In this document: piece by piece, positions 390 through 27,210 of the stretch | Position numbering within the stretch: the stretch's first letter is position 1 | Layout of the letters: every line of letters begins with the position of its first letter | DNA from: Bacilli bacterium | GTDB taxonomy: Bacteria; Bacillota_I; Bacilli_A; RF39; UBA660 | NCBI GenBank assembly: GCA_017406955.1 | Contig: JAFQXM010000003.1 | Location: 14,527 to 78,526, forward strand | Direction of reading: 5' to 3' | Length of the DNA stretch: 64,000 bases | The notes under the pieces: generated by a model | The model's database searches: none | Seen by the model: the letters and a program-made list of their open reading frames with translations, nothing else | Told to the model about the DNA's origin: nothing | Translations under genes and position numbers: made by a program

Positions 390-2120
390 TTATTTGTTTT
401 CATCACTTAACTTTTTATAATTTACTTTTCCTAGTAATGTTTGTGGTAGGGATTTTCTAAATTCATATTCTTTAGGTAATGAATATTTTGCTAAACTATC
501 TTTACATAATTCTTTGATTTCTTTTTTTAAGTGCATACTGGCACTAACTCCCTCTTTTAGAACAATATATGCTTTAGCAACTTCACCTTTATATTTATGA
601 GGTACTCCTACGACAGAACACTGTAATACTTTATCATGAGACTCTATTACTTCTTCAATTTGTGATGGATAAATATTATATCCGTTAGAAACTATCATTC
701 TTTTTAATCTCTGTGTAAAATATACAATTCCATTAGGGGCAATATAACCTAAATCTCCTGTATGTAACCATATTTTTTTATCTTTATGTCTTCTTAATAC
801 TAAATTAGTTTCTTTTTCGTTATTTAAATATCCTAACATTACAGTAGGTCCATTAACACAAATTTCCCCTTCTTCTCCTACTTCTACTTCACAATCTGTA
901 TTAGGAATACATATTTTATATAAGTTACCTACCATTGGTACTCCAATACTTCCTAAAACATTAGATTCACCATAACTATAACAAGTAGCAGCAGTAGACT
1001 CTGTCATTCCATAACCAGTTGACAGTTTTATATTAGCACCATGTTTATGAAGAAAATCATTAAATCTAGTTTCAGCATCACTATACATTGTATCTCCACC
1101 ATTAATACAATACTTTAAGAATGATAAGTCTGTATTTTCTAAGGCTTTATTTGTTACCATACCATTCCATAAAGTTGGTACACATGCTAAAAGTTGTGGC
1201 TTTTCTGATTTTAATATTTTAGTAAATCTTTTATTATCAAATTCTGGCATTAAAATATTTTTTATACCTTTGCACATACCAGTATGAATACAAACACCTA
1301 ATCCAAAACCATGAAATATAGGTAGGATAGTGATTATCTTATCACCTGTTTCTGCTTTATCTATATTTACTTCACATTGCTGTTCTAAAGCATTAAAATT
1401 AGCGTTAGATAAAACTATTCCTTTAGGTACTCCTGTAGTTCCCCCACTATGAAGTATTACTGCGGGATCATCTTTTTTCATATTATGAGTGATTTCTTCA
1501 TTATAAGTTAGTCCATTAATAATAAAATCGTTCCAATAAATATAATTTCTATCTCTTCTTTTTGGTTTTAATACTTTGAAACCTCTAGTAAATTGGTATC
1601 CAACTTTAAAAAGTAAAGGCATAGAATCTTTTGCAGATACTACAATAGTTTTATATAAAGATGTTTCATTAATTATCTCTTTTACTTTTTCATAACAAAC
1701 ATCTATCATCATTAATATTTTAGAATTAGTTTCATTTACATATAATTTGATTTCTTCTTGTCCAGATAGAGGATGTACCATATTAGCAATCGCTCCTATT
1801 TTATTACAAGCATAAAAAGCAATAATTGCTTCTGGTGTATTAGGCATACAAATTGTAATGACATCTCCTTCTACTACACCAAGTTTCTTAAAACTTTTCG
1901 CACATTCTTCTACTTTTTTGAAAAATGTTTTATATGTAATATTTTTATCAAAGTATCCAATACAATTAAGATTTAAATTATCTTTTGACCTAGATACTAA
2001 GTATTCATACATAGTCATGTCAGGTACTTTAAACCCACGTCTTACATCTTTAGGCCAATAAGAAGCAGATTTCTTATTAATATTTTCTTTTTTCTTAAAT
2101 ATATCTTTTAATGATTTCAT
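390..2120 (-). CDS. Long-chain fatty acid--CoA ligase (AMP-binding, class I adenylate-forming enzyme)
   Basis: HSGGTTGVPKG, GYGMTE, WLHTGDLG and LPQTLLGKV motifs. Confidence 0.85.
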   Translation of the reverse strand: MKSLKDIFKKKENINKKSASYWPKDVRRGFKVPDMTMYEYLVSRSKDNLNLNCIGYFDKNITYKTFFKKVEECAKSFKKLGVVEGDVITICMPNTPEAIIAFYACNKIGAIANMVHPLSGQEEIKLYVNETNSKILMMIDVCYEKVKEIINETSLYKTIVVSAKDSMPLLFKVGYQFTRGFKVLKPKRRDRNYIYWNDFIINGLTYNEEITHNMKKDDPAVILHSGGTTGVPKGIVLSNANFNALEQQCEVNIDKAETGDKIITILPIFHGFGLGVCIHTGMCKGIKNILMPEFDNKRFTKILKSEKPQLLACVPTLWNGMVTNKALENTDLSFLKYCINGGDTMYSDAETRFNDFLHKHGANIKLSTGYGMTESTAATCYSYGESNVLGSIGVPMVGNLYKICIPNTDCEVEVGEEGEICVNGPTVMLGYLNNEKETNLVLRRHKDKKIWLHTGDLGYIAPNGIVYFTQRLKRMIVSNGYNIYPSQIEEVIESHDKVLQCSVVGVPHKYKGEVAKAYIVLKEGVSASMHLKKEIKELCKDSLAKYSLPKEYEFRKSLPQTLLGKVNYKKLSDENK

Positions 2121-2164
2121 TTAATCACTCCTACCTTTTAATTTTATCATAATAAGAAAAGAAG

Positions 2165-3223
2165 TTAAATACTTCTTTTTACTTTCTTCACGCTTTTTTC
2201 TATATCTTTTTTAAAGAATAAGTATGTTGATCTTATTAACAAATAAATTGGTAAAGCTGCAATTATACCAACTACTCCCATTAAAGATCCTCCTACACTA
2301 ACTACCATAATTGTAATTAGTGGATTAACGTTATTTGTCTTACCATATATTTTAGGAGAAATAATATAACCATCTAATTGTGGAAATATCAGACAAATTA
2401 TAATTGTAAATATTACTAATTTAGTAGATATTAAAGATGCGGTAACAATTGCAATTAAATTAGTAATTAATCCTCCAAAATATGGAATAACTGTAGTAAC
2501 ACAAGCAAGTAAACCTAATACTAACCAGTTTGGATGACCTACTATAAAAAATAGAAAACTATATTCAAAAAATTGAATTACCATAAAAATTCCCAAACCT
2601 TTTATATAATTTCCTATTTCAACATCTAGTGTCTTAAAATAATTATATGTTTTTTTACTAATAGATAGTAATATATTTTTAAATCCTTCTTTTATTTTGT
2701 CCATATCTATTAAAAAATAAATAAATCCAACAAACCCTAATATAATCTTACCAATAAGAGTTAATGAGGTAGATATAATATTCATAACTCCTGAAGATGT
2801 TGCACTTCCAATATATTTAACAATCTCATTAAAATAATCAGCTATTTTTATTTCGAATCCACCTAGATTTAGATTAAACCTATTCCCAATATTTTCTATT
2901 ACTTCTATTATATACTTGGCAAAAGAACTTACTTGATCATACAACATTGGTAGAGTTATTATTAATAAACCTAGAACTGCTAGAACTAAAAATAATATTA
3001 CTGATACTAATGCAATCCATCTTCTAACACCTTTACTTTCTAAATATCTAACTACTGGATTAAGTGCATAAGCAAATACAAATCCAATAATAAATGGTCC
3101 TAATAATGATATTATTTTAGATGCTACTTTTATCCATAAATTTATATTATTAAAACCTATATACAATAATAACATTAATGCAGTTATATTTATTAAACTA
3201 TAATTTATTTTATTTTTAGACAT
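2165..3223 (-). CDS. AI-2E family transporter
   Basis: Multiple TM helices; AYALNPVV, IPYFG and SPKIYG motifs. Confidence 0.85.
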   Translation of the reverse strand: MSKNKINYSLINITALMLLLYIGFNNINLWIKVASKIISLLGPFIIGFVFAYALNPVVRYLESKGVRRWIALVSVILFLVLAVLGLLIITLPMLYDQVSSFAKYIIEVIENIGNRFNLNLGGFEIKIADYFNEIVKYIGSATSSGVMNIISTSLTLIGKIILGFVGFIYFLIDMDKIKEGFKNILLSISKKTYNYFKTLDVEIGNYIKGLGIFMVIQFFEYSFLFFIVGHPNWLVLGLLACVTTVIPYFGGLITNLIAIVTASLISTKLVIFTIIICLIFPQLDGYIISPKIYGKTNNVNPLITIMVVSVGGSLMGVVGIIAALPIYLLIRSTYLFFKKDIEKSVKKVKRSI

Positions 3224-3227
3224 ATAA

Positions 3228-3662
3228 TCACCTCTCTAAAATAATAGTAGTTGGCCCTATATTAGAAATATTTACTTCCATATCAGCTCCGAATATTCCT
3301 GTTTTTACTTTTATATATTTTTCTAATTCCTTATTAAACTCTTCATATAATTTATTAGCTTCTTCTCCTCCAAGTGCTTTTATATAACTTGGTCTATTTC
3401 CTTTAGAAGTATCAGCATATAAAGTAAATTGTGATATAGATAGTATTTCTCCTCCATAATCTAATATGCTTTTATTCATTACACTATTTTCATCAGGAAA
3501 TATTCTTAAATTAACTACTTTTTTTGCTAAATACTTAATTTTATCTAGATTATCTCCTTCAGTGAATCCTACTAATAAAACTAACCCACTATTAATACTA
3601 TTATGAACTTTATTATCAATAACTACACTAGCTTTATTACTTCTTTGTACTAATATCCTCAT
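3228..3662 (-). CDS. dtd: D-aminoacyl-tRNA deacylase
   Basis: MRILVQR start, SQFTL and GPTT motifs; directly downstream of rel. Confidence 0.95.
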   Translation of the reverse strand: MRILVQRSNKASVVIDNKVHNSINSGLVLLVGFTEGDNLDKIKYLAKKVVNLRIFPDENSVMNKSILDYGGEILSISQFTLYADTSKGNRPSYIKALGGEEANKLYEEFNKELEKYIKVKTGIFGADMEVNISNIGPTTIILER

Positions 3663-5812
3663 CGCATTAGCCTTTCTACTTTAATAACATATTTTATTTT
3701 ATCTAAAGCAAGTATTACTTTATTTAATTGCTCTAAACTATTTACGTATAAATGAGCTTCATATGTAAGTTGTTCTGTTTTATTTATAGTTTTTATTCCA
3801 TCTACATTTACATTTAACATAGATATGGCCTGTATTAAATCTACTATATGATTATCTAGTGTATTTGAGTAAACTAATAATATAGCTAAATACCTATTAT
3901 TAGTATTATCATTCCAATTAACTTCTACATTTCTATTTTCTAACATTGATAGGTTATGACAATTACTTCTATGTACATTAATACCATTACCTTTAGTAAT
4001 ATATCCAATAATATCATCACCATATACAGGCATACAACAATTAGCTAAATTAACTCTTACTTTATCTATACCACTAACTATAATATCTGCTTCTTTATCT
4101 TTAGAAGTTACTTTAACTACTTTAGGATTTTTATCTTCTTGTTTATGAATAACATTGATTACAGAATTAGGAGAATTTTTACCATTACCAACTACTAAAT
4201 ATATTTCATCTAAGTTCTTAACTTTTAATTCTTCACATATCTTTTCAATATTTTCATCAGTAAAGAATTCTTTTAGTGGTATTTTTCTTTTTCTTAAAGT
4301 CTTCTCTAAATTATATTTACCACGTTCTAAATATATTTCTCTTTCACTCTTTGTAAAGAAACTTTTTATCTTATTCTTTATTTGAGTAGATTTAACTATA
4401 TTAATCCACTCTTTAGATGGTTTAGAATTTTTATTAGTAATTATTTTTACTATATCATTATTTTTTAATTCATAATTTAGGGGAACTATATTATTATTTA
4501 CAATGGCTCCTGTAGTGGTCTCTCCTACTTTAGTATGTATTTTATAAGCAAAATCTATTGGAGTTGCCCCTTTAGGTAATTCCATTACATCTCCTTTAGG
4601 AGTAAATACATAAATATTATTATTTAATACTTCATTTTTTACACTTTTAACAAATTCTTCACTACTCATTTTATCTTTAGATAAATCAATTATTGATTTA
4701 AAAAATTGTAATTTTTGTTCTGTAGTTGATTGAAGATTTGCTTTAGTTTTAGAACCTCTATTTTCTTTATATGACCAATGAGATGCAATACCATTTTCTG
4801 CTACTTCATCCATCTCATATGTTCTTATTTGTATTTCGTATAATAAACCATCTACACCAAATACTGTGGTATGTAGAGATTGATACATATTAGGTTTAGG
4901 CATGGCAACATAATCTTTAAATCTATTAGGAAGTGGTCTAAATTTAGAATGAATTATACCTAAAGCTAGGTAACATTCTTGCTCTGTATTTACTAATATT
5001 CTTAAAGCTAACAAATCATATATATCACTAAATTTTTTACCTTTATCTAATTTATTATAAATACTATATATACTTTTAGCTCGTCCTTTTATTTCATGAT
5101 TTATATTATGTTCACTAAGTAGATTAACTACTTCTTTTTGCATAACATTAACAGAATTATCTCTTTCTAATTTAGAATTATTTAGTTTTTCAACTATATC
5201 ATAAAATACATCTGGTTTTAAGTATCTTAGAGCTAAATCTTCTAACTCACTCTTTATTTTATGAATACCTAAGTGGTGCGCAATAGGTGCAAGTATTTCT
5301 ATGGCTTCTTTAGCCTTTACTTTTTGTCTATCTGCAGGTACTGCCCATAATGTTCTCATATTGTGAAGTCTATCACATAATTTGATAATGATTGCTCTTA
5401 CATCTTCACTCATACCAACTATTATTTTTTTATAATACTCTATTAAATAATCATTTTCTGTTGAAAAATTAATTTTACTTAATTTAGTAACTCCTTTTAC
5501 TAAATTAGTAACTACTTCTCCAAATTCTTTTTCCATCTCTTCTGGAGTGCAATCACAATCTTCTAATACATCATGTAAAAGTCCTGCCATAATTGTTTCT
5601 GAATCTGCATAAATATCTGAAAGAATTAAAGCAACATTTAAAGGATGTGTGATATATGGTTCCCCACTCTTACGATATTGTCCTTCGTGTTTCAAAGACG
5701 CAAAAAGATAGGCCTTCTCTATTAAAGCAAGCTTATCTTCTTCTATATATCCTTTTAATTTATCTTTCACACTATCAAACGTGATGTTATCCATAGATGG
5801 CAAAGGAATCAT
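3659..5812 (-). CDS. relA: Bifunctional (p)ppGpp synthetase/hydrolase Rel
   Basis: HD motif (LLHDVLED), YQSLHT, EIQIRT, TGS domain (ATPIDFAY), C-terminal ACT-like region. Confidence 0.96.
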   Translation of the reverse strand: MIPLPSMDNITFDSVKDKLKGYIEEDKLALIEKAYLFASLKHEGQYRKSGEPYITHPLNVALILSDIYADSETIMAGLLHDVLEDCDCTPEEMEKEFGEVVTNLVKGVTKLSKINFSTENDYLIEYYKKIIVGMSEDVRAIIIKLCDRLHNMRTLWAVPADRQKVKAKEAIEILAPIAHHLGIHKIKSELEDLALRYLKPDVFYDIVEKLNNSKLERDNSVNVMQKEVVNLLSEHNINHEIKGRAKSIYSIYNKLDKGKKFSDIYDLLALRILVNTEQECYLALGIIHSKFRPLPNRFKDYVAMPKPNMYQSLHTTVFGVDGLLYEIQIRTYEMDEVAENGIASHWSYKENRGSKTKANLQSTTEQKLQFFKSIIDLSKDKMSSEEFVKSVKNEVLNNNIYVFTPKGDVMELPKGATPIDFAYKIHTKVGETTTGAIVNNNIVPLNYELKNNDIVKIITNKNSKPSKEWINIVKSTQIKNKIKSFFTKSEREIYLERGKYNLEKTLRKRKIPLKEFFTDENIEKICEELKVKNLDEIYLVVGNGKNSPNSVINVIHKQEDKNPKVVKVTSKDKEADIIVSGIDKVRVNLANCCMPVYGDDIIGYITKGNGINVHRSNCHNLSMLENRNVEVNWNDNTNNRYLAILLVYSNTLDNHIVDLIQAISMLNVNVDGIKTINKTEQLTYEAHLYVNSLEQLNKVILALDKIKYVIKVERLMR

Positions 5813-24436: not shown

Positions 24437-24664
24437 TTATTCTCCTTCTTTAAATTTCTCTACAAATTTAGGAAATATTTCTTTTTCAAAAAGATCTGGG
24501 TCTATTTTAAATATACCATCATCTTTTACTTCAACAAACATAGTATCTGCTTTATTTTCATCGTTTACTAAGTATAAATATGTGTGATCTTTATGATCAA
24601 CTTGTTCTATTACCAAAAACTTTTTATCATTTTCCAACGTCATTGTTTTATCAGTATAATCCAT
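24437..24664 (-). CDS. Small acidic protein, DUF1292-like
   Basis: 75 aa with TLEN.K.F.V....Y.YL pattern; TAATG overlap with the upstream gene. Confidence 0.5.
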   Translation of the reverse strand: MDYTDKTMTLENDKKFLVIEQVDHKDHTYLYLVNDENKADTMFVEVKDDGIFKIDPDLFEKEIFPKFVEKFKEGE

Positions 24665-25767
24665 TATAGACTCACCCCTTTTGGTTTTTCTAATTGTTCT
24701 GGTTTTGCGGCATCTTCTAATATTGATTCTAAATCATTTGGAAGATACTGTTTTCCTAACTCTTCTTCGTAATCTTCATATAATTTATTTGCTTTTAAGT
24801 AATCTACAAATTGATCATATACTCCCATTTTCTTTAAATTTTCTATCTCTTTTTTGTCTTTCATTACTTGTCGAATTGAAGAAATACCAGTTAAAGTGGC
24901 TACTGCTGCTGCAACAACTCCTGCTGTAGCTCCTCCATATTCAAGAATAGGCATTATATCTGAAAAAATTTCCCCTATTGCTGCTGCTCCTGCTCCTGCT
25001 AATATACCTGCTACTCCTCCTGTTGCTAAGCTACTAATTCCTACGTGCTCTAAATACCCTGCTATTTCACTTCTTTGCCCTTTTTTTGCCACTTTGTACT
25101 TTTCGTCATCTTTATCAAGAGTTTTAATAGTTGCTACTCTTTCCATATTATAAGGAATAATATCATCTTCTTTTTCTAAAGTATTTTCTGCTTTTCTAAT
25201 TGCACTTTTTTTCTCTCTATATAAAAGATCTTTTAATTCACTAATATAGTATAATTCAACATATTTTTGTACTTGTTCTTCTGTCATCATATCATATAAT
25301 AAATCTTTTTTCTTAATTTCTTTTATACTATCTTGTATGGATTTTAAATTAAGAATTCTATCTTTTTCTATGATTGATTTTTTTTGTTCTTCTGTCATCT
25401 TATTAAAATATTCTGTTTGGGTTTTTTCTTGTTCTTCATCTGATAAATTATAATAATGTGAATCACCAATTTTTTTATCCCGTAATCGATCATCAACTTC
25501 ATTCATTATAATTCTGTTACGTACTTCTTCTGATAATGAGTTATAATAATCTTCTGATGATAAAAATGGGTTCCCAAATCTTAAATCTTTTCTCATTCTT
25601 TCAGCCTTTAGTTCTTCAAAAGATTTACTTCTATATTTTCTGATTTCTTTTAATAAATAATCAGCTCTTTCTTTTGCTTCCACTTCTGCATCTTTTATTT
25701 TTTTTGTATAATTATTCTCAACTGCAGCCATATCTACTGGATTATCTGCATCTAAATATTTTGACAT
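24664..25767 (-). CDS. Hypothetical protein with Gly/Ala-rich hydrophobic hairpin
   Basis: 367 aa with AGGAGG RBS; segment LATGGVAGILAGAGAAAIG...GGATAGVVAAAVATLTGI; no signal peptide. Confidence 0.75.
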   Translation of the reverse strand: MSKYLDADNPVDMAAVENNYTKKIKDAEVEAKERADYLLKEIRKYRSKSFEELKAERMRKDLRFGNPFLSSEDYYNSLSEEVRNRIIMNEVDDRLRDKKIGDSHYYNLSDEEQEKTQTEYFNKMTEEQKKSIIEKDRILNLKSIQDSIKEIKKKDLLYDMMTEEQVQKYVELYYISELKDLLYREKKSAIRKAENTLEKEDDIIPYNMERVATIKTLDKDDEKYKVAKKGQRSEIAGYLEHVGISSLATGGVAGILAGAGAAAIGEIFSDIMPILEYGGATAGVVAAAVATLTGISSIRQVMKDKKEIENLKKMGVYDQFVDYLKANKLYEDYEEELGKQYLPNDLESILEDAAKPEQLEKPKGVSL

Positions 25768-25874: not shown

Positions 25875-26228
25875 TTACTTTATTACTTTTTTATTCCAAG
25901 TTTTCATACCACATTTAGGACATTTCATATATCTAGTTCTTTTTATATGCATAGATAATAATACATCTTTATATGTAGGTATATATTTATTATGACAATT
26001 ATTACATTGATAGTAACCTGCGACTTGTTCTATTTTTATACAATATAATACTCCTACTACAAATATAACGAATCCTATTACTATTAATAGTACTCTTATT
26101 ATATTATTCATTTCAATAAATGATGCAGTAAATACTAGTGTAAATAATGATATTGATGCGGTTAAACCAATTACCCATTCTAGTTTTAATAATAATTTAA
26201 TATATTCTTCTTTTTTCATAAAATACAC
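25875..26228 (-). CDS. Membrane protein with C-terminal CxxC...CxxC zinc ribbon
   Basis: Two TM helices, then EQVAGYYQCNNC...MKCPKCG. Confidence 0.7.
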   Translation of the reverse strand: MYFMKKEEYIKLLLKLEWVIGLTASISLFTLVFTASFIEMNNIIRVLLIVIGFVIFVVGVLYCIKIEQVAGYYQCNNCHNKYIPTYKDVLLSMHIKRTRYMKCPKCGMKTWNKKVIK

Positions 26229-26272
26229 CTCAATTTATTAATATTATATCATAAAAAAAGAGCTTATGCTCT

Positions 26273-26809
26273 TTAATTAGTAAGTGTTAATTCTGCAGTT
26301 TCTATTGGTAAATTACTATAGTTAGCATCTGTTAGATTAATAGTTCTAGTAGCTCCTACTTGGTTTTGTATTTCTACTGTAGATGTATTTGTAGTCATTG
26401 TTGTATTTTGAACATTACTATCAAATTCATGATCTCCATCTGATGCAGTTTGTTTATAATATATTACTGGTGCGTTAGTAGCAGCAAATGGAACATTATT
26501 AAATACTGCATCTCCATTACTATCTGTAGTTATTGCATTTCCATACTCTGTACCTGTACTATCTGTTCTAATGAAAGTTGCTCCTACTATTGGAGTACCT
26601 CCAGCTGTTCCTTCTTCTGTTACATGTAGAGTTAATGTACCATTAGCTGCGATTGTAAAATTATAACTATTAGTAACTTGATCTATTGTAACACTATTTG
26701 GATCTATAGTTGTATTATCAAAGCCATTAACATTAGCTTCTACTGTATAAGTATCATTAATTAACTGTGCTGTTCCTGTACCATTAGTAATGTTTACTAT
26801 TTTTGCCAT
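26273..26809 (-). CDS. Prealbumin/SpaA-like beta-sandwich protein, Thr/Asn-rich, no signal peptide
   Basis: Central TLTLHVT...TPIVGATF..TD...TTDSNGDAVFNNVP...YYKQT pattern; AAGGGGG RBS. Confidence 0.7.
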   Translation of the reverse strand: MAKIVNITNGTGTAQLINDTYTVEANVNGFDNTTIDPNSVTIDQVTNSYNFTIAANGTLTLHVTEEGTAGGTPIVGATFIRTDSTGTEYGNAITTDSNGDAVFNNVPFAATNAPVIYYKQTASDGDHEFDSNVQNTTMTTNTSTVEIQNQVGATRTINLTDANYSNLPIETAELTLTN

Positions 26810-27138
26810 AAGATTAATTCCCCCTTTTCAATTGGCAAATTACTATAATAGTAATCTGTTAATAAAAAAGTGATAGGATTATTTTCTATAATACTACGTC
26901 TAAATTTAAATAAATAACATTTCCTAGTTTTATTTACATAAAACCATATATCAATTATTTCATCTTTAGATATTGCTTCTAATCTATAACAATTATTCTT
27001 TTTTAAACATAATTCTAATTCTCCATTATATGTTTTTCCTTCATATATTAATTTATTATTACTATTGTATATTTTTGTATAAGCTTGAAATCTATTATTA
27101 TATCCTAATCCAGTAAATATTAATTTTATTTTTTTCAT
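26797..27138 (-). CDS. Hypothetical protein sharing its C-terminal motif with the downstream gene
   Basis: Ends LTDYYYSNLPIEKGELILWQK; 13-bp overlap with the next gene; AAGGTG RBS. Confidence 0.7.
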   Translation of the reverse strand: MKKIKLIFTGLGYNNRFQAYTKIYNSNNKLIYEGKTYNGELELCLKKNNCYRLEAISKDEIIDIWFYVNKTRKCYLFKFRRSIIENNPITFLLTDYYYSNLPIEKGELILWQK

Positions 27139-27156
27139 TTCCATCACCTTTCATTT

Positions 27157-27210
27157 TATTATATGAAAAGTAATAATCTATAATATATGCATATTACCTA
27201 TTTTTGTGAC
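27157..27210 (-). promoter_or_regulatory. Putative mother-cell (sigmaK/sigmaE-like) promoter(s)
   Basis: GTCACA-15nt-CATATATTA (27210-27181) and a second CATATAATA (27165-27157). Confidence 0.45.

Follow-up and report, generated by a model that had tools for sequence, protein, structure and literature searches.

Type V pili (FimA, Mfa1) of the Bacteroidia are made of transthyretin-like sandwiches, each of which passes two C-terminal donor strands into the N-terminal domain of the next subunit. Their pilins occur both as self-complemented monomers and as strand-exchanged polymers, and they are lipoproteins of Gram-negative Bacteroidia that carry a signal peptide and lose an N-terminal anchor strand to the Rgp protease, all as set out in the available part of PMC13655056. 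Sortase pili and the stalks of MSCRAMMs (microbial surface components recognizing adhesive matrix molecules) are strings of CnaB-type sandwiches (BcpA, SpaA/SpaD, RrgB, the B repeats of SdrD, the TIE protein); these proteins are secreted and bear an LPXTG signal, sortase links them covalently to one another, and internal isopeptide bonds are usual. Endospore appendages (ENA) of the S and L types are built from DUF3992 proteins. The available part of PMC12357932 describes ENA subunits from Bacilli and Clostridia as proteins of about 100 to 180 amino acids that lack a signal peptide, self-assemble in the cytoplasm and use separate anchor proteins, and describes the F-ENA subunit as a DUF4183 protein with N-terminal hooks. 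Here we describe a cassette of two overlapping genes in a 64,000-nucleotide stretch of DNA (the window) from a Bacilli bacterium (assembly GCA_017406955.1, contig JAFQXM010000003.1, positions 14,527 to 78,526). The upstream gene (26797..27147, minus strand) encodes a small protein that is a candidate cap or anchor, and the downstream gene (26273..26809, minus strand) encodes a 178-amino-acid protein that is a candidate fibre subunit; both open reading frames (ORFs), reported in a preliminary description of the sequence, are present. With moderate confidence, we propose that the cassette is a self-contained operon for a non-covalent polymer in which subunits complete a split beta-sandwich of their neighbors, head to tail. 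Of the known systems, type V pili come nearest to it in mechanism, the sortase-linked CnaB pilins in building block and the ENA fibres in the biology that we propose.

The proposed subunit would comprise the later strands of one sandwich (residues 1-55), a complete CnaB domain (residues 56-153), a short linker and the first two strands of a sandwich (residues ~155-176). The C-terminal hairpin of one subunit would insert into the unfinished N-terminal domain of the next, so that whole and hybrid domains would alternate along the chain. The upstream protein, comprising one complete domain and the same hairpin on a flexible tail, would fill the acceptor end of a subunit; because it cannot accept a hairpin itself, it would act as an end cap and probably as an anchor or nucleator. 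Alternatively, it may be a placeholder that is displaced by the next subunit. How long the chains grow would depend on the relative amounts of the two proteins. Sequence establishes the gene structure, the motif and how well it is conserved, and the existence of the fused relatives described below, whereas the folds and the head-to-tail contact rest on models only; from these we infer the length of the polymer, the role of the small protein and the location of the fibre.

As in type V pili, C-terminal donor strands would enter the N-terminal domain of the next subunit, here in a model only (residues 151-178 with residues 1-55). Unlike type V pilins, the subunit would be made with its acceptor already open, the chain beginning at the third strand, and the missing strands would be found on the tail of a neighbor or on a separate small protein. 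The subunit also differs in having no signal peptide, lipobox, cysteine or N-terminal extension, and the hosts are Bacillota. No sequence relationship to type V pilins is detectable. TasA is an example of a donor-strand filament that forms without a chaperone. The non-covalent completion of a sandwich by a neighbor's strand is likewise shared with chaperone-usher pili and with chaperone-free filaments (archaeal threads, bundling pili and cannulae), and the sources, as far as they are available, describe the archaeal donor-strand filaments as assembling without a chaperone. In all of these filaments, however, a single N-terminal strand completes an Ig-like or jelly-roll fold and the subunits are secreted, whereas here the donor would be a two-strand C-terminal hairpin, the fold that of CnaB or prealbumin, a secretion signal is absent, and one gene would be dedicated to donation alone. 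The features of a chaperone-usher system, namely an Ig-like fold short of its last strand, a donor extension at the N terminus and genes for a periplasmic chaperone and an usher, are likewise missing: the donor is C-terminal and has two strands, there are no conserved neighboring genes in 10 loci, and the hosts are Gram-positive.

The likeness to sortase pilins and MSCRAMM stalks lies in the CnaB-type beads on a string, but the window proteins have no signal peptide, LPXTG or conserved Lys, and successive subunits would share a domain. Like ENA, the cassette pairs a small fibre-subunit candidate lacking a signal peptide with a separate anchor candidate. ENA subunits belong to other folds and families and join via N-terminal connectors or hooks, in S-ENA also via disulfides, whereas here a C-terminal hairpin would complete a split domain and the subunit has no Cys; neither DUF3992 nor DUF4183 is among the Pfam matches of either protein at E values up to 1. 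SpyTag/SpyCatcher resembles the cassette in that there, too, a CnaB domain is divided, with a short peptide and the large remainder together restoring it. That split is man-made, removes the last strand and is locked by an isopeptide bond, whereas the present one is natural, would remove the first two strands and does not conserve the isopeptide residues. A profile of the half-domain compared with the later strands of CnaB2 (4mli_A) gave an E value of 0.11, which is not significant. The preliminary description had set the cassette apart from chaperone-usher, sortase, type V and DUF3992 systems, and the comparisons above agree with it, the C-terminal donor strands of type V pili being shared in the model. 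A full-text literature search found no description of the family or of a split-CnaB polymer, although lists of appendage families in supplements could have been missed. Relative to the known donor-strand fibres, what appears to be new, judging from the models, is a split CnaB domain with a separately encoded donor-only protein.

The predicted split domain and its proposed donor motif

The upstream ORF can be read as 116 amino acids from the GTG at 27147, but its true start is most likely the ATG at 27138, which gives 113 amino acids: a Shine-Dalgarno sequence, AAAGGTGAT (27151-27143), precedes it, and a database copy of the protein (P0121) is 113 amino acids long with the same ATG start. Both proteins of the cassette end in the same motif of about 22 residues. 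In a single pairwise BLASTP comparison, residues 93-113 of the upstream protein aligned with residues 156-176 of the 178-amino-acid protein with 14 of 21 identities (E 3e-6), in agreement with the original claim of a common C-terminal motif, and at the level of sequence the similarity exceeds chance. The motif of the upstream protein (ITFLLTDYYYSNLPIEKGELIL; 26809..26874, minus strand) is predicted to represent the first two strands of the split domain, and that of the subunit (RTINLTDANYSNLPIETAELTL; 26282..26347, minus strand) was placed by BLASTP and by the family alignment. The two segments earlier said to be alike in DNA, 26828-26862 and 26311-26335, both lie inside these spans. In the upstream family (alignment A1, 24 sequences) no other stretch is nearly as well conserved as the motif, and in the 178-amino-acid family (alignment A2, 46 sequences) the motif stands at the C terminus throughout, down to 26% identity, with D161 and Y164 nearly invariant. 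A tail profile run against all six frames of the 1.14-Mb genome recovered the two proteins with E values of 6.8e-16 and 3.3e-14 and revealed no third carrier of the motif, the next match having an E value of 0.061. By eye, the two motifs share lineage-specific residues across loci, an impression formed without a count.

The preliminary description had read the 178-amino-acid protein as a half-domain, a full domain and two further strands. Consistent with this layout, the Pfam model CarboxypepD_reg (PF13620) matches residues 9-52 with profile positions 35-80 of 82 only (E 0.018; 15.8 bits, under the cut-off of 32.3), and residues 10-111 of the family profile align across the boundary of tandem CnaB domains in the TIE protein of B. 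anthracis (E 1.1e-5). Because only the second half of the profile is matched, and because of the TIE boundary match, residues 1-55 (26645..26809, minus strand) look like a prealbumin/CnaB-like domain in which the later strands are present and the first two missing, and thus like an acceptor half-domain. Structure comparison assigns residues 56-153 (26351..26644, minus strand) to a complete CnaB-type domain, D3. Modelled residues 55-153 match CnaB2 (8bdw_A) with a Z score of 12.5 and a root mean square deviation (rmsd) of 2.1 over 91 aligned residues, followed by the pilins BcpA, SpaD and RrgB; Foldseek gave an E value of 4.8e-6 for this domain, and the Pfam model SpaA (PF17802) matched the protein under its cut-off (E 0.0069; 17 bits against 23.1). 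The third element of the layout, the motif, lies at the extreme C terminus. A seven-strand prealbumin-like sandwich is predicted both for residues 55-153 and for the upstream protein. Many CnaB domains typically contain an intramolecular Lys-Asn/Asp isopeptide bond. In alignment A2 none of the columns that are invariant or nearly so holds a Lys that could form one, and in the middle domain His occupies the first-strand position at which Lys would be expected.

Alignment A2 also shows an invariant Gly57 in the two-residue turn between the half-domain and the CnaB domain, and an invariant M1, with the family opening straight at the first strand of the half-domain. This constant start bears out the claim that there is no signal peptide. 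At the other end, the chain stops 2-5 residues past the motif, and LPXTG is absent. Among the 66 ORFs of the window, the 178-amino-acid protein has the lowest content of K+R (2.2%; mean, 14.5%) and the highest content of T+N (32.6%; mean, 12.2%), and it has no Cys; this is the composition of an exposed structural or surface protein. Inspection by eye found nine N-x-S/T sequons and 20% Thr, against an estimated 5-6 sequons by chance, and glycosylation of a surface fibre is conceivable from the sequence. No Pfam, NCBIfam or PHROG model covers either protein above its cut-off, the upstream protein being without any Pfam match, and a sequence search found no solved structure for any member of either family.

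For the upstream protein, the claim of a donor with no obvious acceptor agrees with its predicted structure. Residues 1-80 of the 113-amino-acid form (domain D1; 26899..27138, minus strand) are modelled as a complete seven-strand prealbumin/CnaB-like sandwich with a predicted local distance difference test score (pLDDT) of 92-98 and strands at residues 2-9, 20-24, 30-35, 40-45, 49-57, 60-68 and 74-78. The best structural match of residues 1-84 is 3e8v_A, with a Z score of 9.2 (rmsd 2.1, 72 aligned residues), a middling level that is common to many prealbumin-like domains; CnaB2 (8bdw_A) scored 7.9. The tail, which includes the motif, shows no secondary structure in the model of the isolated protein, and its pLDDT is 51-63. 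A conserved tail that cannot fold by itself is the behavior expected of a donated strand.

Predicted head-to-tail contact and competing explanations

As the preliminary description had suggested, several copies of the 178-amino-acid protein were predicted as a complex, using three copies and alignment A2, alongside three controls. The three predictions scored 0.75, 0.75 and 0.78, each of the controls scored 0.00, and the runs had at least 96% of their contacts in common, with a partner pLDDT of at least 92. The mark for this score is reached by 20 of 30 known homomeric pairs and by 1 of 23 single chains; it was calibrated on two copies with the tool's own alignments, and a pass supports binding without proving it. 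In the models, the hairpin of one copy is buried in the N-terminal domain of its neighbor, head to tail. On the donor side the interface comprises residues 124-128 and 151-178 of copy 2, and on the acceptor side residues 1-28, 30, 34-36, 40, 42, 44 and 47-55 of copy 3, together with residues 81, 83, 89-90, 104-105 and 114-115 at the base of its CnaB domain. The two copies come nearest to each other between residues 157-162 and 49-54, between residue 159 and residues 7 and 10, and between residues 174-177 and residues 21, 25 and 51. The tail of copy 3 itself has no listed contacts, which fits an open chain rather than a ring.

Natural fusions join the same elements. P0147 (272 amino acids) contains the upstream domain, the motif, the half-domain, the CnaB domain and a second motif in a single ORF; it represents a 90% cluster of 8 members, individual members of which are found on 1 to 7 contigs. 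P0231, P0232 and P0245 (293-300 amino acids; clusters of 2-3) and the singleton P0149 have the same fused layout. In the fused relatives the motif directly precedes the half-domain, which is the place of the missing strands, and the singleton P0144 (339 amino acids) consists of two subunits in tandem, the half-domain of the second following immediately on the terminal motif of the first. Together with the three-copy model, the fusions support the prediction that the C-terminal strands complete the half-domain of the next subunit. P0231, P0232 and P0245, which come from a lineage of higher G+C, retain Met-Ala at their junction, the very point at which the second protein of the split forms begins, and an internal start that also yields the short protein is conceivable from the sequence. 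The 181-amino-acid P0280 belongs to the same 90% cluster as the 293-amino-acid P0232. A metagenome scan with P0147 recovered no locus.

Several points weigh against the proposed polymer. AlphaFold2, given a 46-sequence alignment, folds the single 178-amino-acid chain with a mean pLDDT of 96.6 and a predicted template modelling score (pTM) of 0.85, and it is confident at both ends, with a pLDDT of 91-97 for the blocks of the tail; a self-complemented monomer may therefore be possible. In this model, DSSP assigns few strands to residues 1-18 and 150-178. The binding of the small protein to the subunit is suggested by the identity of the motif and by the fusions, not by a model of the complex. 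If cap and subunit were made in a ratio of 1:1, chains would be very short. The fused relatives keep their terminal motif although the acceptor is already filled in cis, so that either strand exchange between molecules is needed or the motif has another role. Tandem fusions are rare, being represented by one singleton, and a search for relatives of 313-2000 amino acids found none, which is itself weak evidence.

An alternative is that the cassette encodes a finite complex and no fibre, with the 178-amino-acid protein closing on itself or pairing 1:1 with the small protein and the motif serving competition or regulation. We regard this as the less likely outcome but a serious one. Besides the confident full-length monomer, the invariant turn at Gly57 could lay the two domains side by side and bring the tail back, overlapping cistrons could yield near-equal amounts of the two proteins, and self-complemented monomers are known for FimA and Mfa1 (the available parts of PMC6615685 and PMC13655056, respectively). 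However, the three-copy model places the tail in trans, with control scores at zero; the fused relatives retain a second, terminal motif for which the same chain has no free acceptor; and the tandem P0144 joins the motif and the half-domain of successive units. Moreover, relatives of the small protein are 50-60% identical and those of the subunit 74-81%, and the faster divergence of the small protein fits a minor cap and a major structural subunit.

It is improbable that the shared motif instead acts as an address label, read by some third component such as a layer of the spore coat or exosporium, a modifying enzyme or an export route. The motif does close both proteins as well as the fused forms and is unstructured in the small protein alone, and the subunit has the composition of a surface protein yet neither protein has a signal peptide. 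Nevertheless, no conserved third gene stands beside the pair in 10 loci and no further protein in the genome bears the motif, and in the fused relatives the motif sits exactly at the missing strands of the half-domain; in the model it is buried against residues 7-10, 21-25 and 49-54 of the neighbor.

Organization and distribution of the cassette

A database search with the 178-amino-acid protein found 1402 relatives, all from gut, rumen and similar metagenomes, of which the best 120 are all 172-179 amino acids long and 74-100% identical; clustering at the 50% level left 134 representatives with E values up to 0.001. The upstream family is represented by 23 database relatives and by one sequence read from locus L003. 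Among 41 related genomes, the 178-amino-acid protein has a match in three, namely the window's own (G000, with one gene of this type), G001 and G013, suggesting that the cassette is accessory. G001 and G013 keep both genes and both motifs, and G013, at 46% identity, also keeps the overlap. A scan of one genome per species gave 23 loci at 48-80% identity, from metagenome-assembled genomes of rumen and gut Bacilli (genomes of ~1 Mb) and from Oscillibacter/Oscillospiraceae, and 22 of these loci include the 5' end of the gene. Both genes are present in all 22, and in 21 the upstream ORF, in another frame, ends just past the downstream ATG. The preliminary description had called for a survey of the pair, the overlap and the motif in related genomes, and conservation extends to all three. 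In the remaining locus, L019 (region 1122-4534), the small gene is found 2.5 kb upstream of the subunit gene. A 782-amino-acid ORF that separates them resembles a P-type ATPase by eye, and the subunit gene there has a strong Shine-Dalgarno sequence of its own.

In the window the stop of one gene and the start of the other overlap by 13 nucleotides (26797..26809, minus strand; TGGCAAAAATAG over ATGGCAAAAATAG), and the junction reads TTATGGCAAAAATAG, with LWQK and its stop codon laid over MAK. The downstream gene has a Shine-Dalgarno sequence, AAGGGGG (26820..26826, minus strand), 10 nucleotides 5' of its ATG and inside the upstream codons E-K-G. The overlap suggests translational coupling, and the two proteins are probably translated separately from coupled cistrons. 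A terminator-like hairpin with a 7-pair stem and a T-run marks the 3' end of the unit (26257..26274, minus strand; the scan for intrinsic terminators found 2 such sites against 0.2 expected), and a promoter-like region flagged as sigma-70-like lies 5' of the upstream gene (27210..27157). With these two signals around it, the pair looks like a transcription unit of its own.

The preliminary description had offered, as an alternative, a programmed -1 frameshift at the heptamer A_AAG_GGG (26827-26821) that would fuse both ORFs and complete the domain in cis. The heptamer and the open -1 frame are there as described, and single-ORF relatives exist, but a role in frameshifting is very unlikely. The heptamer overlaps the Shine-Dalgarno sequence and is absent from the 20 junction sequences of related loci, inspected by eye, and from G013 (E-M-G); at the same position other loci have AGGGGG, AGAGGA, AAAGGAG and the like, which are Shine-Dalgarno sequences about 10 nucleotides before the invariant ATG. 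The downstream frame is -1 in 17 of the 20 junctions and has another offset in 3 (L016, L017 and L025), the genes are 2.5 kb apart in L019, and past the heptamer the two motifs stay similar in the zero frame (ELIL versus ELTL). A slippery-site reading, which calls for a conserved X_XXY_YYZ and a constant frame relation, was rejected, neither being found. Least probable of all is that the pair arose when a single gene was disrupted by mutation or by faulty assembly, or that it belongs to the structural genes of a prophage: fused relatives such as P0147 do exist, as the preliminary description had allowed for, and an ESM Atlas cluster of 52 look-alikes of 178 amino acids carries a 67% viral label that derives from 3 members of known phylum, but the split form, with both frames intact, is conserved in 22 loci from two classes of Bacillota and is thus no artefact here, and the genes around it, rplS and lepB among them, are ordinary chromosomal ones. 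A phage origin was rejected after searches with PHROG, tblastn against 50,697 phage records and two viral-contig scans all returned no match.

The pair is flanked by an ADP-ribosylglycohydrolase gene and by a gene for a small zinc-ribbon membrane protein, with rplS and lepB not far away. Downstream of the pair lie the gene for this 117-amino-acid membrane protein with its C-terminal zinc ribbon (25875-26228, minus strand), which has no counterpart beside the cassette in locus L010, and a charged 367-amino-acid ORF with a Gly/Ala-rich hydrophobic stretch and no family match (24664-25767, minus strand). Among the Pfam-annotated neighbors of 10 loci there is no conserved third gene beside the pair, and the flanks differ between loci. 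The earlier statement that no sortase lies nearby stands for the neighborhood of the cassette, where there is none and where the proteins carry no sorting signal, but it does not extend to the genome, which has five sortase genes over the Pfam cut-off and one below it on contigs C4 and C5.

Host, candidate promoters and a possible link to spores

The window's genome (1.14 Mb, 93.7% complete) contains Spo0A (143 bits; contig C7:14128-14439) and SpoIVA (355 bits; contig C5:191635-192342), both outside the window, and on this sequence evidence the host is a spore former. Upstream of the small gene lies a match to a sigma-K-type promoter (27181..27209, minus strand), consisting of TCACA (27209-27205), 14 nucleotides and GCATATATTA (27190-27181). 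Sporulation promoters were scanned with the B. subtilis sigma-K and sigma-E consensus sequences (Table 4 of PMC3416734) against 1308 background windows. The match in the window agrees with the B. subtilis sigma-K consensus at all 12 specified positions, a score that none of the 1308 background windows reaches (9 reach 11), and two closely related Oscillibacter loci score 11 of 12 in DNA of 55% G+C. A sigma-E-type match has its -10 element, TCATATAATA, at 27166-27157 (minus strand) and a -35 element that overlaps the sigma-K-type match; sigma-E-type matches of at least 13 of 15 occur in 6 of 21 loci and in 67 of the 1308 background windows. The sigma-K-type match, a match to the consensus only, is suggestive of mother-cell expression but does not prove it. 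In the window (27166-27157) and in L010, L012, L013, L014, L015, L016 and L018, a conserved TATAAT/CATATAATA element is found about 10-12 nucleotides before the Shine-Dalgarno sequence of the small gene, with a second AT-rich element and an AGGT(T) box further upstream.

Given Spo0A and SpoIVA in the host and the sigma-K-like promoter match ahead of the pair, a fibre associated with spores is possible. That such a fibre assembles in the mother cell and is then presented on the spore or around it is, in our view, a minority prospect, though not a negligible one. Several observations weaken the link. SpoIVA is found in 22 of 24 other genomes of the ~1-Mb family regardless of the cassette, as well as in 5 of 5 further cassette-bearing genomes, and it was not found in the cassette-bearing genome G013 (90% complete). 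Most other loci score at background for the sigma-K pattern (8-10 of 12), and a strict sigma-K regular expression matches in the window, L008 and L021 only. It is a tentative suggestion, and somewhat more doubtful again, that the cassette defines a new class of fibre as a whole: a split-CnaB polymer free of chaperone and secretion signal, provided with a donor-only cap or anchor, which the mother cell of gut and rumen spore formers, Bacilli with genomes of ~1 Mb among them, would produce as an appendage of the endospore that has no relation to ENA.

If head-to-tail complementation is correct, it would be a new principle for assembling CnaB domains into a fibre, in which the subunit is born with an open acceptor, the missing strands come from the next subunit or from a small partner, and no sortase, chaperone, usher, protease or secretion signal is needed. 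A natural split-domain pair with a built-in terminator of growth might also be of use in engineering, as a non-covalent counterpart of SpyTag/SpyCatcher. Spore formation in Bacilli reduced to ~1 Mb is notable in itself, and the hosts are poorly known, largely uncultured spore formers. Because the family is unannotated and common, with about 1400 relatives, confirmation would give a name to a sizeable group of hypothetical proteins in these organisms.

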